DNA of 64,000 nucleotides from Candidatus Omnitrophota bacterium (GTDB lineage: Bacteria > Omnitrophota > Gorgyraeia > Gygaellales > Profunditerraquicolaceae): assembly GCA_041650495.1 (NCBI GenBank), contig JBAZLB010000002.1, forward strand, positions 165,960-229,959, given 5' to 3'. A model generated the notes under the pieces. It ran no database searches, was not told the origin of the DNA, and was given only the letters and a program-made list of their open reading frames with translations. Position 1 is the stretch's first letter. Every line of letters starts with the position of its first letter. Shown here piece after piece: positions 3,961-25,068 of this stretch. A program made the translations under genes and the position numbers.

Positions 3961-4233
3961 TTAAATCTTTCCCGTAAGAATCAATACGCCTATGATCACA
4001 AAAAGAAACGCACCCATATACCTGATCAACTCCGGCCTTATATACCTGCTTAAGGCTGAGCCGAGAAAAACCGAGATAGCGGTGATTACTATATAGGCGG
4101 ATACGGAACCCAGCCACACCAGCAAAGGCTTACCGGACTTAGCAGCCATGCCTATGCCGACTAACTGGGTCTTATCCGCAAGCTCTGCCATAAATACCGC
4201 CGTAAACGTAGCAAATAACAGCCTCCAATCCAT
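3961..4233 (-). CDS. UPF0016 (GDT1/TMEM165) family single-repeat membrane protein
   Basis: Hallmark E-x-G-D-K-T motif (ELADKTQL), three TM helices, ~90 aa. Confidence 0.6.
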   Translation of the reverse strand: MDWRLLFATFTAVFMAELADKTQLVGIGMAAKSGKPLLVWLGSVSAYIVITAISVFLGSALSRYIRPELIRYMGAFLFVIIGVLILTGKI

Positions 4234-4273
4234 CCTTCCTCCTTTATAAAATTACTCCCGGGGCAGGGGCTTT

Positions 4274-14443: not shown

Positions 14444-15016
14444 TTATTTACCCCACAGGCCGCGGCGGTTATCGCGCGCCTGCCGGTAGAGCTTGGAAAA
14501 CAAATCCGCATATTTAACATTCGGCGGGATAGTCATTAAAGAAGCATACCCTGCCTTTATAATCTCGGCATTGATAAAGGTGCCGTCCTTTAAATATACA
14601 TAAGCAAGTATACGGTTGTAACGGTCATACTTTTCTACGTCAAACTCAAGGCTCACCCTCTTGCCTTCGACCAGTTTCCGGGTAAAATCATAGGCCCGCC
14701 TGCCTAATTTCTGAATGGTGGTAATATCATTTCCGGACCTGCGGCTATCCCGGTATAATTTCCTTGATTCATGCATCTCAGGGGTATCCACTCCGATAAG
14801 GCGCACGCGTTCACCGTTGGCAAGTTCCAGGGTATCCCCGTCAATGGCCTTGGCGACTAAAACATCGGTGTATTTTTCGGAAACCCCGAAGGGAATGGTG
14901 AATTTTCCGTCTTCTGAGTAGTATATAGTGACCGGCTCATCCCCGTAAAGGTTTACTCCGCCTGACAAAGCCCATACTGCCGCCAAAATAATGATGCCCT
15001 TATTAAAATTCCCCAT
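14444..15016 (-). CDS. Secreted thermonuclease (SNase-like)
   Basis: Signal peptide, then DGDTLEL..VRLIGVDTPE SNase motifs. Confidence 0.75.
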   Translation of the reverse strand: MGNFNKGIIILAAVWALSGGVNLYGDEPVTIYYSEDGKFTIPFGVSEKYTDVLVAKAIDGDTLELANGERVRLIGVDTPEMHESRKLYRDSRRSGNDITTIQKLGRRAYDFTRKLVEGKRVSLEFDVEKYDRYNRILAYVYLKDGTFINAEIIKAGYASLMTIPPNVKYADLFSKLYRQARDNRRGLWGK

Positions 15017-20389: not shown

Positions 20390-21112
20390 CTAAATATCCG
20401 TGGCCATAAAAGAAAGGTTCCTCTCGATAAAACCAAGAAGTTTTTTTTGTGTCTCGGCAGGTATATGGTAAAACTCTACCCCTATGCCGGGGTGAAGCTG
20501 GAGTTGTATCTGTTTATCCGGGATCCATACCACCCTGGCTTCAATCTCTATCTCTTCTGCGCTGGGAGCGAGTTTAAGCTTAAGAATAACCTCATCCCCT
20601 AATCTGAACTTGTCGCAGCCGAAGATATAAGCGCCTACGGCGCTCAGGTTCAATATGTCCAACTTCAGGCAAAGCGGAGGATCGGCAGTCTTTGACTTAA
20701 GCTCTATCTTGATATCAATAGGCAGGCGTTTAAAACGGCGGCGCAATTGCATCTTCTTGATGTTTTCTATCGCCTTGTCTTCCTTAAAGCTTCTTACCGC
20801 ATCATCCTCCGTTGCGTAAATATCAATCGCCCTATCCAGCCCGGAGATAGAAAAGACCCCCCTGACATGGGCCGGTATGTTGGTAAATTTCATCCTGCCG
20901 TCATTATTTGTTACCTCTTTATACGCCAGGGTTACAGCAGAGACACCCATATAATCTATAAAATCTACGTCTTCCAGATTGCATAATATATCGCAATAGC
21001 CATCGCGCAGGCACTGGCCTACTGCCTCAACCAGATTAGCCGAATCTACGTCAATACGGCCGCTCAAGTCCAATATAATTATGTTTTCTTTCTGTCTTGC
21101 CCTGATTTCCAT
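20390..21112 (-). CDS. STAS domain (anti-sigma-factor-antagonist-like) fused to a C-terminal PilZ domain
   Basis: N-terminal ..IIILDLSGRIDVDSANLVEAV..VDFIDYMGVSAV.. STAS/SpoIIAA-like. C-terminal RRRFKRLPIDIK (RxxxR) and DILNLSAVGAY (DxSxxG) PilZ motifs. Confidence 0.6.
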   Translation of the reverse strand: MEIRARQKENIIILDLSGRIDVDSANLVEAVGQCLRDGYCDILCNLEDVDFIDYMGVSAVTLAYKEVTNNDGRMKFTNIPAHVRGVFSISGLDRAIDIYATEDDAVRSFKEDKAIENIKKMQLRRRFKRLPIDIKIELKSKTADPPLCLKLDILNLSAVGAYIFGCDKFRLGDEVILKLKLAPSAEEIEIEARVVWIPDKQIQLQLHPGIGVEFYHIPAETQKKLLGFIERNLSFMATDI

Positions 21113-21114
21113 TT

Positions 21115-21300
21115 AATGAGCACATAACTTACGAGCACGCAGTGCGAATAAGTTATTTGTGCGAATTATCCTGATATATACGACCACGCAGCGCTTAGCT
21201 GGCGGGGTATGAGCCCATAACTTACGAACACGTAGTGTGAGTAAGTTATACGGCCGAATTATCCCGAAGCCTGCGATGAAGATTTCGAAGAAATCTTCAG
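21115..21300. repeat. Two tandem ~93-nt units of an intergenic hairpin element (ATAACTTACG..CGTAAGTTAT stem-loop plus GCGAATTATCCYGA box), followed by a 21-nt perfect palindrome
   Basis: Hairpins at 21124-21155 and 21217-21249. GCGAATTATCC box at 21161-21174 and 21253-21270. Palindrome GAAGATTTCGAAGAAATCTTC at 21278-21298. Confidence 0.7.
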
Positions 21301-21425
21301 GCGCTTAGGCAAGGGATGCTCCTTTTTGCTTTTTGGATTAAATAGAACCGTCCCCTTTTGACTTGTAATATTAACATAGCCAAGAAGCTCAATCAATAGA
21401 TTTTACCCATAAGACATAAGAAGCG

Positions 21426-21929
21426 CTAACTTATTTGCTGGCCCAGGAACATAATAGGCTGAAAATGCTCGATCTCTATAAGTTTCCACCTGCCCTTTTC
21501 CTTAATCAGCCTCACCCTTACTTCTTCCTTTTGGGCCTCCAGTATATTTTCTTTCTGTCCCTGGCTGTTTTTCCCTGCCACAAACGCCCTGACCTCAACG
21601 CGTGCCTGGTCCCTGGATTCATCTAACTTTATATCTATTTTATCCAGGTAAACAAATATATCACGGTAATAATCAAACGCCTGCCTGCCGGCATAAATCA
21701 AGCCCTGGCGGTCATTGCCGTATTTGTCCCGGTAATCCCAGGCAAGCATCTCTGAACAGGCTAAAAGGTTTTTCTTTTCCACTGCCTGTCTCGCCCGCAA
21801 TATAAACTTATAAACCCGTTTTTCTTCGCTAAGAAAGGCCCTGTTTATTCCCAGATACAAAATAAAAACGGCCAGCGCTATTAGGCCGTAACGTAAATAA
21901 ACCTTGTATTTACCCGCTTCGATGAACAA
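21426..21929 (-). CDS. Hypothetical membrane-anchored protein
   Basis: N-terminal TM helix and no recognized domain. Confidence 0.35.
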   Translation of the reverse strand: MFIEAGKYKVYLRYGLIALAVFILYLGINRAFLSEEKRVYKFILRARQAVEKKNLLACSEMLAWDYRDKYGNDRQGLIYAGRQAFDYYRDIFVYLDKIDIKLDESRDQARVEVRAFVAGKNSQGQKENILEAQKEEVRVRLIKEKGRWKLIEIEHFQPIMFLGQQIS

Positions 21930-21932
21930 GCC

Positions 21933-22463
21933 TTACCCCTCCCTGATATCTGCCGTATACATTCCACACATAGCCAGGGCACAGATGGTTTTGGCATCCG
22001 TTATCCTGCCTCTTTTAAATAAACGCATTACTTCACTTTTTTTCAATGCCATGCTTGTAATGATTTCATCCTGCTCTGGCAAAGGATGTTCTTTTTTCAG
22101 GTCGCTTGCTTTATAAATATTTATCTCCTCCGTAGAATACCCGGGGACAGGATAAATCTTACCCAGAAAAGTAAATTTCTTAGCCGAATAACCTGTCTCT
22201 TCTATGATCTCCCTGCGCGCACAAGTTAACGGGCCTTCACCTTCCTTTAGTGTCCCGGCCGGCAATTCATAAAGGTATTTATTTATCACCGGCCTGAACT
22301 GCCGTAGAAAAATAATAGTGTCCCTATTTAAAAACGGTATCACCAAGGCAGCCCCCGGATGCCAGATAACCTCTAAGTCCACGGTATATCCGTTAGGTAA
22401 CTTCACCCTTTTCTGCATAAGGCTGACCAGCCTGCCTTTATATATATGTTTTATCTTCTGCAA
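21933..22463 (-). CDS. NUDIX hydrolase (ADP-ribose pyrophosphatase-like)
   Basis: Nudix box GTLKEGEGPLTCARREIIEETGY. Confidence 0.75.
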   Translation of the reverse strand: MQKIKHIYKGRLVSLMQKRVKLPNGYTVDLEVIWHPGAALVIPFLNRDTIIFLRQFRPVINKYLYELPAGTLKEGEGPLTCARREIIEETGYSAKKFTFLGKIYPVPGYSTEEINIYKASDLKKEHPLPEQDEIITSMALKKSEVMRLFKRGRITDAKTICALAMCGMYTADIREG

Positions 22464-22464
22464 A

Positions 22465-22881
22465 TTATTCCCCGATGATCTTGACTAAAACCCTTTTTTT
22501 TCTCCTGCCGTCAAATTCTCCGTAGAATATCTGCTCCCACGGCCCAAAATCCAGCTTGCCTGCGGAGATTGCGACTACCACTTCCCTGCCCATAACCGTC
22601 CTTTTTAAATGCGCATCCCCGTTATCCTCACCCGTTTGATTATGGCGGTATTTATCTTTCCCGTAAGGAGCAAGTTTTTCAAGCCAGGCAGCAAAATCTT
22701 CATGCAGCCCTTCTTCGTCGTCATTTATAAAAACACTCGAAGTAATATGCATGGCAGAGATCAGGCACAACCCTTCCCTGACCCCGCTTTCTTTCAGGGC
22801 CGCCTCTACCTGGACAGTGATATTAATAAATTCCTGGCGGGAACGGGTATTAAACCATAGGTATTGGGTATAAGACTTCAT
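22465..22881 (-). CDS. YjbQ/UPF0047 family secondary thiamine-phosphate synthase-like protein
   Basis: 138 aa, ..[24 protein letters not shown].. typical of YjbQ. Confidence 0.7.
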
Positions 22882-22913
22882 GGATTTTTCCTTCTTCTTT
22901 TCTCCTGGATAGC

Positions 22914-23390
22914 TTATCTAGATATCTTTAATATTTTATAACACAGCACGCCTGCGGGGATTTTAATCTCTATGGTCTCCCCTTTCTTATGACCCATCAG
23001 GCCCTTGCCTAACGGCGAAGAAACAGAAATCTTGCCCTGCTCATAATCGGATTCCACTTCTGAAACAAGGGTATACTCCAACTCCTCTTCGGTTTTTATG
23101 TCTTTTAACTTAACCTTGGCCCCGATAAGCACTTCCTCACAACCGATATTCTCATGCTCAATGATACGTGCCCGGCTAAGCTTATCCTCAAGCTCGGAAA
23201 TCCTTGCTTCATTGAACGCCTGCTTGTCTTTGGCTGCCTCGTACTCGGCATTCTCCCTTAAATCCCCAAACCCCCTGGCCCGGGCTATCTCTTTGGATAT
23301 TTCTCTCCTGCAGGTATTCTTTAAATAATTTAATTCCCCCATTAACTTTTCATACCCCTCGCGCGTCAAATAAACATCCTCAAAATCCAT
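22914..23390 (-). CDS. greA: Transcription elongation factor GreA
   Basis: N-terminal coiled-coil with D41/E44-like acidic tip ([13 protein letters not shown]), C-terminal FKBP-like domain. RBS GGAGGT upstream. Confidence 0.85.
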
Positions 23391-23400
23391 AATTACCTCC

Positions 23401-23560
23401 TAATGAGCAGACAACTTACGGAGCGATTATTTTATCCATCTCCGACGTAAGTTGTAGCCCCTTATAAAGGGGCGTCTGCGAATTATCCCGAAGCGTACGC
23501 AGAAATTTTCTAGCGCTTGCGCTAGAAAAATTTCAAGTGCTTACGCAAGGGACATCCTGA
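23401..23560. repeat. Third copy of the hairpin/GCGAATTATCCCGAAGC/palindrome element
   Basis: TAATGAGCAGACAACTTACG...CGTAAGTTGT stem at 23411-23455. GCCCCTTATAAAGGGGC hairpin follows, then GCGAATTATCCCGAAGC at 23479-23495 and a 33-nt palindrome at 23502-23534. Tail GCAAGGGACATCC parallels GCAAGGGATGCTCC at 21310. Confidence 0.7.
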
Positions 23561-23598
23561 TAAACCCACCCTCATAACCCTAATTATGATAATGAGTT

Positions 23599-25068
23599 CT
23601 AAGCGCGAGAACCGTCCCCTGATTTTTTAATTAGCTTCCTGGCGACGCGTAAAGCCTCTTGTTTATCTTTTATCTTCCCGATCGCCTGAAGCTCCTCTAT
23701 CTCAGAAAGAATCTTTCCGATTAAAGGAGAAGGCGATATCTTGAGACTTTTTATCAAATCATCCCCTGTAATAAGGCGAGGGGGCTTTTTGGCCTTTGCG
23801 TTCTTAAAATACTCCCTGATCAGGCCGTAAACCCCCTTTTCATGCTGTATCCGCGACTCCTCTGAAGTCAGGGGCCCCTTGGTCGCCCGCTGGTCAGCCA
23901 AAGAAAGCAAAAGTATACTTAATGCCTCTCTTGCCGTATCCCGGAAATACCTGAACTTGGCCCGGGCAGTAATATGTTTATTATCCGCAAGATAACCAGG
24001 CCTAAGGTGCCAGAAGACCATCTTGCCTAAAGAATCTGCTTCGTCATTGGAAAGTTTAAGCCTCTTAGCTATTTCCTTGGTAATATTCCAACCTATGCGC
24101 TCATGGCCATGGAATTTAGTCTTTCCTTCCTCATGGACTAATGCCGCGGGTTTGCCTATATCATGAAGCAGTATCCCTAATTTTATTAATCCGCGCCTCT
24201 TCCTTTCACCCGATATGGCCTCATCAAGGTAGCCCTGGATATCCTTATTCCTCCCCGTTCTTTTCAACAACAATTCAAATTGCCTTAATGCCTCTAAGGT
24301 ATGCTGCCATACATCCAGGTGGTGATACGGCCCCTGTTTGACCCCGCGCATAACCTCGATCTCAGGGATGATGATATTCAGTATCTTCAGGCTGTCCAGC
24401 TTGCTGATAGCCTCAAATGCCAGGGGCCTTTGCAATATCTTAAACAGCTCATCCCGGATACGCTCAAAAGAAACCGCCGCTAAAAGCCCTGCCTCTGATT
24501 TTATTCTCTTTAAGACCTCCCCGTCTATCCTGAAACCAAAGACAGAAGAAAGGCTGAAGGCGCGCAGCATCCTTAAAGGGTCGTCACGAAAGGCCTTATC
24601 GTCCGTAAGCCTGATCAATCTTTCTTTTATATCTTTCCTGCCTGCGCAAGGGTCAATAATTCCTTTTTCCCCCGCTTTTAGATCCGAGGCTAAGGCATCC
24701 TTTAAAGAAAGGGCCATGCTATTGATAGTAAAATCGCGGTGCCGCAAATCCTCTTCTATTGACTTGCCGCGGAAATCCGCAAAATCCAGGGTATAGGTCT
24801 TATCTTTTATCCTCTTTACTACGCGCGCACAGCCGTGTTCTTTATCCAATAACACAAAACCGGCAGAAATCCGGCGGGCAAGATACCGGGCGAAATCAAC
24901 TGCCTTCTTTTTAAGACAAAAGTCAATATCAGGGCTACCCTTTCTTACCCCCAGGTAATTATCACGCAGGTATCCTCCCACTAGGTAAAGTTCAAGCTTA
25001 CTCTGCTCTGCCTCATGAAAAGCAGCCTTTAATAATGCCCTGTCCTCCTGAAAATCAAATAGCCTCAT
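23599..25068 (-). CDS. cca: CCA-adding tRNA nucleotidyltransferase with HD domain
   Basis: Pol-beta NTase head (GGYLRD..DIDF) plus HD motif (LLHDIGK). Confidence 0.8.
   Translation of the reverse strand: MRLFDFQEDRALLKAAFHEAEQSKLELYLVGGYLRDNYLGVRKGSPDIDFCLKKKAVDFARYLARRISAGFVLLDKEHGCARVVKRIKDKTYTLDFADFRGKSIEEDLRHRDFTINSMALSLKDALASDLKAGEKGIIDPCAGRKDIKERLIRLTDDKAFRDDPLRMLRAFSLSSVFGFRIDGEVLKRIKSEAGLLAAVSFERIRDELFKILQRPLAFEAISKLDSLKILNIIIPEIEVMRGVKQGPYHHLDVWQHTLEALRQFELLLKRTGRNKDIQGYLDEAISGERKRRGLIKLGILLHDIGKPAALVHEEGKTKFHGHERIGWNITKEIAKRLKLSNDEADSLGKMVFWHLRPGYLADNKHITARAKFRYFRDTAREALSILLLSLADQRATKGPLTSEESRIQHEKGVYGLIREYFKNAKAKKPPRLITGDDLIKSLKISPSPLIGKILSEIEELQAIGKIKDKQEALRVARKLIKKSGDGSRA

Follow-up and report, generated by a model that had tools for sequence, protein, structure and literature searches.

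What is the hairpin-rich sequence that stands in front of the greA gene and a STAS-PilZ gene in a 64-kb stretch of DNA from a Candidatus Omnitrophota bacterium (hereafter the window), and does it serve these two genes in particular? An earlier note on this DNA had described it as a novel composite element of ~190 nt in the 5' leaders of both genes. We conclude that it is probably a dispersed, modular, palindromic intergenic repeat of the REP/BOX/Correia/MITE (miniature inverted-repeat transposable element) kind, specific to the Omnitrophota and widespread among them, which is co-transcribed with its neighbours as leader or spacer. The family was previously undescribed, but it belongs to the known class of interspersed intergenic palindromic repeats; its notable traits are phylum-wide conservation and placement at gene boundaries. 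The element is no dedicated regulator of greA or of the STAS-PilZ gene.

The Omnitrophota are an uncultured phylum of ultra-small cells with compact genomes, and we know of no work on their gene expression. A phylum-wide hairpin module at gene junctions would affect gene calling, with open reading frames (ORFs) extended into the element, as at the C-terminus of the CCA-adding enzyme described below. It would also affect the prediction of operons and promoters and the assembly and binning of metagenome-assembled genomes (MAGs). Moreover, the element would be a handle for finding a conserved trans-acting partner (transposase, RNase or RNA-binding protein) and would lend itself well to the question whether dispersed repeats are parasites that the host tolerates or mRNA punctuation that it has recruited.

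Three copies of a two-module element in the window

The repeats lie in two intergenic regions, 21113-21425 (locus A) and 23391-23598 (locus B), and all flanking genes are on the minus strand. This gene set comprises the CCA-adding enzyme gene, greA, yjbQ, a NUDIX gene, a hypothetical gene and the STAS-PilZ gene. A repeat search in the window paired 21116-21174 with 21209-21267 (83% identity) and 21255-21286 with 23479-23510 (81% identity). The motif CGTAAGTTRTNNGCTCAT has exactly three minus-strand occurrences (21116, 21209 and 23403); when up to three mismatches were allowed, five occurrences were found in the window against 0.74 expected, and five were reached in one of 100 shuffles. A second motif, GCTTCGGGATAATTCGC, occurs twice, at 21254 and 23478. 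Folding of both intergenic regions gave z-scores of -4.4 to -7.9 relative to shuffled sequences on either strand. Finally, a covariance model built from relatives and run over the window with filters off recovered exactly three copies of the hairpin that we call D1 (scores in Table 1). Repeat search, motif counts, fold z-scores and covariance model thus agree with the earlier note that a repeated, hairpin-rich element occupies these positions, immediately upstream of both start codons.

The single unit of ~190 nt did not hold up. Instead, the element is modular and consists of D1 (~57 nt, 85 nt at greA) and D2 (55-67 nt in the window). We read the anatomy on the plus strand of the window, the antisense strand for these genes. 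The D1 hairpin, 57 nt long, contains two symmetric 2x2 loops and a near-invariant AACTTA/TAAGTT helix, and follows the pattern TAAT-GA-GCNC-(10-bp helix AYAACTTAYG/CRTAAGTTRT)-GA-(short helix + loop)-GA-...-(0-2 nt bulge)-GNGC-GA-ATTA. The 2x2 loops consist of tandem G·A when read antisense and of U·C when read gene-sense. D2 is an optional, more variable long hairpin of several types. Type I directly adjoins D1 and reads TCCC-GAA-GCNNR...A/U-rich stem, GAA-type loop...YGCTTANGC-AA-GGGA; what had been called a conserved box and a conserved tail are the two sides of its base, which pair with each other (TCCC...GGGA). The supposed perfect palindromes turned out to be apical stem-loops of D2, one with 9-bp arms and a 3-nt loop, the other with 15/16-nt arms and a 1-nt bulge. 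Units are arranged singly, in tandem or as inverted pairs, and in a variant, D1', the two arms of the 10-bp helix have changed places while the G·A loops keep their polarity.

Locus A holds two tandem units and locus B one, and a D2 module is present beside two of the three D1 copies (21262-21316 and 23486-23552). In the gene-proximal unit of locus A (A2, 21114-21206), D1 is intact and reads TAAT-GA-GCAC-ATAACTTA..TAAGTTAT-TT-GTGC-GA-ATTA; a single nucleotide separates its end from the STAS-PilZ start codon (21112-21110), which has no Shine-Dalgarno sequence (SD). The D2 of this unit is decayed: it retains CTAAGCGCTG, homologous to the D2 3' arm, and has lost the apical hairpin. The combination of box, palindrome and tail that had been ascribed to every copy is therefore found in two of the three; A2 has a box, GCGAATTATCCTGA, and neither a palindrome nor the GCAAGGGA tail. 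The D2 of the second unit (A1) reads TCCC-GAA-GCCTGCG..GAAGATTTC-GAA-GAAATCTTC..CGCTTAGGC-AA-GGGA. At locus B, D1 owes its length of 85 nt to an inserted internal hairpin, GCCCCTTATAAAGGGGC (23465-23481), and D2 reads TCCC-GAA-GCGTACGC..long A/U-rich stem..GTGCTTACGC-AA-GGGA. On its gene side, copy B is followed by an SD (CCTCC on the plus strand, 23396-23400) and the greA start codon (23390-23388).

A repeat family of the Omnitrophota

We scanned the strict D1 pattern against species-representative genomes (one genome per species) and obtained 83 stretches, ~78 of which were true copies with the full hairpin. They came from ~46 assemblies, nearly all of them Omnitrophota/Omnitrophica MAGs; a few copies were in assemblies labelled Planctomycetia, 'bacterium', Nitrospirota or Margulisiibacteriota, labels that are unconfirmed. 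Five hits in other phyla lacked the structure, and ~4 chance matches were estimated. Loci around family copies in other genomes are given L-numbers below, and the model searches covered these loci and the window (~650 kb). With cmsearch and nhmmer combined, 113 non-overlapping D1 copies were detected, with at most six model matches per 8-kb locus, and all 113 lie between ORFs. The element is thus not unique to the two loci of the window, there being ~78 further copies by the pattern and 113 copies in all, those of the window included, by the models.

Rfam gave no match at gathering score in the window, and a permissive scan of 20900-23800 gave only chance matches (E of at least 2.4). When six related loci were scanned, only FMN, tRNA and group I intron matches were found, all elsewhere than the element. 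A literature search produced no description of Omnitrophota repeats. The claim of novelty therefore stands, at the level of the family.

Copies tend to resemble others of their own genome. On the D2 side, the best match was in the same assembly in 42 of 82 decided comparisons, same-assembly comparisons being a small minority, and near-identical copies were seen within PCWA01, CAKKQZ01 and L069. Eight inverted D1/D1' pairs were found, 150-300 nt apart and with D1 and D1' facing outward; most copies have D1 at one end only. The source organism of the window was found in only two to three samples.

Some copies are chimeric, with a 5' half of the D1' type (AAGTTCAGAC) and a 3' half of the D1 type (GGGCGAATTA): L024 299-344, L059 5136-5183 and L047 5526-5573. 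They look like products of recombination between neighbouring inverted copies via the common 10-bp helix.

Neighbouring genes and variable occupation of gene junctions

The 82 ORFs that adjoin D1 encode proteins of unrelated families with diverse housekeeping functions. They include the ribosomal proteins L3, L22, L14, L9, S9, L35, S20 and L25 as well as EF-Tu, EF-G, DnaK, GyrB, ACP, RibH, FtsA, IlvB/D, ArgF and Fur. Upstream regions of greA orthologues (65-72% identity) on six related contigs, 12-146 nt long, contained no D1. Locus L079 is syntenic with 23.6-30.8 kb of the window (68% nt identity); it has a D1 before the CCA-adding enzyme gene, where the window has none, and no D1 before the STAS-PilZ gene, where the window has two. 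A second comparison involves an orthologous gene of 85% nt identity, which is preceded by an ordinary AAGGAAAAATG in L069 and by a 390-nt D1/D2 array ending in GCTCATTAAATATG in L072. Presence or absence of the element thus differs among relatives in three comparisons (window versus L079, L072 versus L069, and the greA loci). Because the neighbours are diverse, the element is missing from greA orthologues and its junctions differ in a syntenic relative, we conclude that it is not gene-specific, and the tie to greA and STAS-PilZ that the earlier note had drawn is dissolved.

The array of L072 (4493-4860, ~390 nt) contains at least two D1 and several D2, one with a nested extra hairpin, and fills the region upstream of a small Cys-rich ORF. 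The sole recurrent orthologous D1 position that we saw is the junction of ribBA and ribH, which is occupied in three MAGs with a different type of D2 in each (L011 4301-4359, L047 5661-5718 and L068 3390-3449); this junction may be a hot spot for insertion or one favoured by selection.

The variable sites suggest that the element would spread as DNA among gene boundaries. On its outer side, the D1 core is bordered by TA in 61-63 of 66 copies, while the inner TA is fixed by the search pattern and TA is also part of the basal helix; such flanks would fit a TA-targeting mechanism. In the best filled/empty comparison (L072/L069, 85% identity), there was no alignable junction.

Transcription, orientation and position relative to genes

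Copies of the element lie inside ribosomal-protein operons (L063 and L071) and downstream of clear TTGACA-N17-TAGTAT promoters (L025 and L040). In L047 (3954-4316), an FMN riboswitch aptamer (87.9 bits) and its terminator are followed by a D1 in the opposite orientation (4190-4248) and then by ribBA; L008 likewise has terminator, D1, D2 and ribBA. Because copies are found downstream of canonical promoters, inside operons and past the terminator of an FMN riboswitch, transcription of the element is very likely. The layout of L047 also means that the antisense-type strand can occupy a 5' leader. As to the window, locus A is plausibly described as a 5' leader: a candidate promoter there (Table 1) would place the element in a STAS-PilZ leader of ~250 nt. 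The description does not apply to locus B, where the element is an intercistronic spacer. The element would thus enter the mRNA together with its neighbours in both cases.

Where the flanking genes point the same way (86 copies), the order is D2, D1, next gene in 75 copies and inverted in 11 (87% oriented). The distance from the end of D1 to the SD or start codon is usually 0-16 nt. Downstream of D1 on the gene-sense strand, an SD plus start codon is reached within 40 nt in 34 copies (..GCTCATTA-AGGAGG-N5-8-ATG), and 33 copies lead into a further unit, a terminator or a short ORF. In 32 others the start codon comes within 8 nt, most often at +3, and lacks an SD; some of these starts may be mis-called (e.g. 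L005). In the inverted copies, the stop codon of the gene before is provided by the outer end of D1 (TAATGAGC) or lies directly against it. Divergent intergenic regions hold two head-to-head units with D1 outermost (L074, L063, L020, L059 and L081).

The minus strand of the window carries 59 of 66 long ORFs, an extreme bias, so that gene direction and replication direction are inseparable there. Elsewhere, loci with all genes in one direction hold D1 in both orientations (L014, L019 and L081), and orientation is therefore not fixed per replichore.

Covariation and the strand that is favoured

In the D1 alignment, 96.3% of cells were paired, and 114 cells had double changes compared with 32.8±4.6 in shuffled alignments. 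When partner columns were slid against each other, pairing fell to 26-43%. Positions left free by the search pattern covary as well: pair 11-57 is GC in 27 copies, AU in 21, CG in 14 and UA in one. In D2 type I, compensatory changes were found in eight of 15 pairs (15 copies). Both hairpins thus covary, and the outcome that the earlier note had named as refuting (an element confined to the two loci, without covariation) did not come about. In palindromic DNA repeats, covariation shows that the hairpin matters, not that its RNA form matters.

Several features single out the antisense strand. The two tandem G·A loops are kept even in 33 copies that had not been picked by the search pattern, and the inner G·A pair is conserved though its place in the helix shifts by 1-2 bp. 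Apical loops on this strand are C-GAA-G, C-AAA-G and GNNA (GNA/GNNA), and unpaired positions are A-rich. The oligonucleotide d(GCGAAGC) forms a very stable DNA mini-hairpin, and the apical loops of D1 are of that class. The D1 hairpin is more stable on the antisense strand in 81 of 90 copies. Counts of G·U versus A·C pairs as a sign of the functional strand were uninformative for D1 (44 versus 46), and those for D2 weakly favour the antisense strand (121 G·U pairs versus 95 on the gene-sense strand). Together, the structural features of the antisense strand point to recognition of a single strand, possibly of DNA, by a conserved protein.

SD-like tetramers, too, are commoner on the antisense strand of D1 (47 of 113 copies compared with six of 113 for the gene-sense strand), as are ATGs (178 compared with 106). 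Because antisense D1 has more SD-like tetramers, more ATGs and stabler hairpins, the orientation bias is explicable by selection. The opposite orientation would put decoy GGAG/AUG motifs and stabler hairpins before ribosome-binding sites, and the element would be kept almost solely where the pyrimidine-looped strand, poor in SD-like motifs and ATG, is in the mRNA. There, its stem-loops, 0-16 nt 5' of the SD or start codon, may act as punctuation that insulates the ribosome-binding site. By analogy with REP and Correia repeats, we speculate that D2 and the AU-rich D2/D1 junction could be a target of an RNase whose cut would leave D1 as a protective 5' hairpin.

Weighing the dispersed repeat against other explanations

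A number of observations weigh against a co-transcribed dispersed repeat of the MITE or REP kind. No filled/empty pair is close enough to prove a target-site duplication. Neither a transposase nor a recurrent partner protein was present among the 647 ORFs in 587 kb around the copies, whole genomes not having been searched, and the loci contained no inverted pair of insertion-sequence size that encloses a transposase. Conservation of D1 throughout a phylum is unusual for a selfish MITE and implies a conserved trans-acting protein or function. The strand that seems optimised for structure is the one antisense to the genes, which a function at the mRNA level does not predict. Eleven copies lie upstream of a clear TTGACA-N16-18-TAtAAT promoter rather than in a leader.

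A dispersed repeat also leaves unexplained the start codons that follow D1 at 2-5 nt without an SD, and the replacement of an SD in L069 by an ATG-abutting D1 before the orthologous gene in L072. Because of these two findings, a real role in translation initiation is possible. The element could be an exapted mRNA element, in which D1 is bound by a conserved protein or the ribosome, serves as a landing pad or 5' stabiliser, can replace the SD and sets expression of the downstream ORF. We regard this as the alternative to be taken most seriously, though as an unlikely one. In its favour, about 30 SD-less copies have the start codon 2-5 nt past ..GCTCATTA, highly expressed genes are prominent among the neighbours, three MAGs share the ribBA/ribH position, and the D1 core is conserved phylum-wide. 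On the other hand, positions are mostly unconserved between genomes. Nor do the copies that precede promoters, or the 11 inverted ones abutting stop codons, suit a role in the downstream leader, and the structural optimisation is found on the other strand.

If the functional molecule were that other strand, probably as single-stranded DNA, the element would be a REP/REPIN-like hairpin for a conserved transposase of the HUH/Y1 or another type, and gene orientation would be a by-product of replication orientation. What credence we give this rather unlikely explanation is owed mainly to the structural polish sitting on the antisense strand: the conserved tandem G·A 2x2 loops with the inner pair kept despite its positional shift, the apical loops and the greater stability. 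In addition, the eight inverted D1/D1' doublets resemble REPINs, and the confounding of gene and replication direction in the window would accommodate orientation as a by-product. The loci with both D1 orientations among one-way genes speak against it, however, and D1 abuts start and stop codons too precisely for placement driven by replication alone. A GTAG or CGTC tetranucleotide ends one side of the REP palindrome in the known REP superfamilies (PMC3733652), and D1 is without this tag: its consensus feet are TAAT-GA-GC and GC-GA-ATTA, with CGTC only in a GCAGAC/GTCTGC variant. No Y1 transposase was found in the loci, the search having been confined to these.

A more specific proposal is that D1 is a gene-boundary signal read in trans by a conserved Omnitrophota protein or the ribosome via the two sheared G·A tandems and the AACUUA/UAAGUU helix, permitting SD-independent initiation 2-5 nt before the AUG or cleavage to near-leaderless mRNAs. 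We consider it improbable. If true, D1 would be a phylum-wide, portable alternative to the SD.

Promoters, terminators and other candidate identities

The earlier note had pointed out a GATAAT hexamer resembling a -10 box. The element would then be a portable promoter, with the GATAAT at the D2/D1 junction as -10 and transcription starting at the foot of the D1 hairpin. An NATAAT, sometimes a perfect TATAAT, is indeed present at the gene-distal foot of nearly every D1, and a divergent intergenic region can be made up almost wholly of two head-to-head units (e.g. L074 and L063). In ~80 aligned copies, however, we found no consistent -35-like hexamer at 16-18 nt and no TGn extension, and a promoter scan found no sigma-70 promoter in the elements. 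We therefore do not read the GATAAT as a promoter, there being no -35 partner. The TAAT at the foot of D1 is accounted for as the partner of ATTA in the basal helix, true promoters of these loci are easy to recognise (TTGACA-N17-TAtAAT with TGn), and copies occur inside ribosomal-protein operons as well as both downstream and upstream of canonical promoters. A portable promoter is accordingly very improbable.

Weakest of all, and hardly worth entertaining, is a gene-specific cis-regulatory leader (riboswitch, attenuator or protein-binding) for greA and STAS-PilZ, as which the element would qualify by fronting both genes, by its high structure and by a possible pairing of GGGGACGGTTCT with the D2 base as alternative structure, since the neighbours are unrelated, greA orthologues lack it, Rfam has no match, and the hairpin sequences covary freely around no conserved ligand-pocket-like junction.

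Other identities were tried and rejected. A riboswitch was rejected on the same grounds of unrelated neighbouring genes, no conserved junction and no Rfam match. No intrinsic terminator was called in the elements, whose hairpins lack a U tract: in the gene-sense reading, UCAUUAAA comes after D1 and AUAAUUCG after D2. True T-tract terminators stand beside some copies (L008, L023 and L035). An independent antisense small RNA was dismissed because there is no room for a promoter, the start codon being mostly within 20 nt of the 5' end of D1 on the antisense strand. A search for tRNA and tmRNA yielded none. By eye, UAAUGAGC..GCGAAUUA resembles the hammerhead ribozyme motif CUGAUGAG..CGAAA; it lacks G5, C3 and A15.1 as well as the three-way junction. 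The G·A tandems of D1 are not those of a K-turn, since the 3-nt bulge is lacking. As to integron attC sites, the likeness of GCATAAC..GTTATGC to the R''/R' cores is partial, and the copies are scattered among housekeeping genes and operons; for a dif site, too, the likeness is partial and the genomic context is wrong. Small ORFs within the elements show no conserved frame. A scan of a viral collection gave one chance match without the hairpin, and a phage or plasmid origin was discarded. The exact 12-mer ATCCCGCCGAAT at 14519-14530 is coding sequence with no hairpin.

Comparison with known repeat families

The dispersed repeat described here shares much with the REP/BIME and REPIN sequences of Enterobacteria and Pseudomonas. 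Both are multicopy extragenic imperfect palindromes that occur singly, in tandem or as inverted doublets, form genome-specific subfamilies and persist for long in a lineage; co-transcription with the neighbours, very likely in the Omnitrophota, is another common trait. Unlike REP (20-40 nt), D1 has 57 nt and a strong orientation bias, and the gene boundary that it abuts is the start codon downstream, not the 3' end of the gene upstream; there is no sequence similarity, and no RAYT was identified.

The BOX elements of Streptococcus pneumoniae are likewise modular, with hairpin boxes in variable number, intergenic near genes and high in predicted structure. Their modules and sequences are different, however, and BOX belongs to a species group whereas D1 belongs to a phylum. 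To our knowledge, no fixed spacing of BOX to start codons has been reported.

The Correia/NEMIS repeats of Neisseria, which are TA-targeting MITEs, have in common with the Omnitrophota element the TA flanks, the inverted ends in full composites, the location just upstream of genes, the -10-like hexamers at the ends and, in all likelihood, co-transcription. Correia transcripts are cut by RNase III. In the Omnitrophota, by contrast, each 'terminal repeat' is a 57-nt hairpin, mostly at one end only, target-site duplication is unproven, no -35 box accompanies the -10-like one and there is no sequence similarity. ERIC/IRU sequences, finally, are also imperfect palindromes of more than 100 nt in transcribed intergenic regions of operons; unlike the modular, 87% oriented element, ERIC is a single long palindrome found in either orientation.

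Features of the two loci

The features mapped at loci A and B are listed in Table 1.

Table 1. Mapped features at loci A and B of the window, with the evidence for each
Feature	Positions	Strand	Evidence and remarks
D1, gene-proximal copy A2	21114..21168	minus	65.7 bits, E 1.4e-15 (cmsearch) and sequence
Decayed D2 of copy A2	21169..21206	minus	sequence, compared with 21262-21316
D1, copy A1	21207..21261	minus	45.0 bits, E 1.1e-09 (cmsearch); outer helix degenerate, GTAT for TAAT
D2 type I of copy A1	21262..21316	minus	aligned with 14 relatives
GGGGACGGTTCT 12-mer module, locus A	21344..21355	minus	upstream of the element, ~6-17 nt downstream of the predicted transcription start
Candidate sigma-70 promoter	21368..21396	minus	TTGATT (21396-21391), 17 nt, TGT-TAATAT (-10 at 21373-21368); upstream of the whole locus-A element
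D1, copy B	23401..23485	minus	25.6 bits (cmsearch); nhmmer 23401-23487; strict pattern matched
D2 type I of copy B	23486..23552	minus	alignment and fold
Small hairpin AACTCATTATCATAATTAGGGTTATGAGGGTGGGTT	23563..23598	minus	minimum-free-energy structure; between the CCA-adding-enzyme stop codon and D2
GGGGACGGTTCT 12-mer module, locus B	23608..23619	minus	upstream of the element; within the end of the CCA-adding enzyme ORF

The candidate promoter of locus A matches at eight of 12 positions, which is under the cut-off of the promoter scan; its form matches that of clear promoters beside elements elsewhere. The arms of the small hairpin at locus B resemble, in our own reading, two facing D1 outer ends (CTCATTA / TTATGAGGG).

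The GGGGACGGTTCT module has two matches in the window against 0.21 expected and was found elsewhere only in L069. A sigma-54 promoter at this module was considered and rejected, GC at -12 being absent in locus A. The module encodes part of the last ~10 codons of the CCA-adding enzyme ORF (..KKSGDGSRA*; 23599-23630, minus strand), and the same module is non-coding at 21344-21355. The orthologous enzyme of L079 diverges exactly past ..KLI, and the C-terminus of the enzyme in the window therefore looks like a product of insertion of the element.

Minor observations

In L017 (606-810) and L053 (7218-7410), a mini-ORF segment of 24-26 nt (ATGATGCCCTGGATGAAGAAATAA, MMPWMKK*) flanks a D2-D1 unit on both sides; it is either a long duplication made by insertion or the result of a tandem duplication of the unit and its flank. 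The window contains two intergenic direct-repeat pairs unrelated to D1 and D2, 51517-51562/52265-52310 (74%) and 42555-42585/43298-43328 (90%), with the members ~745 nt apart; the first pair contains TTGTCAAGG, which is -35-box-like on the other strand. In L068 (291-363 and 448-741), an Omnitrophota MAG locus, a group I intron (100.8 bits) lies ~85 nt downstream of a tRNA gene.

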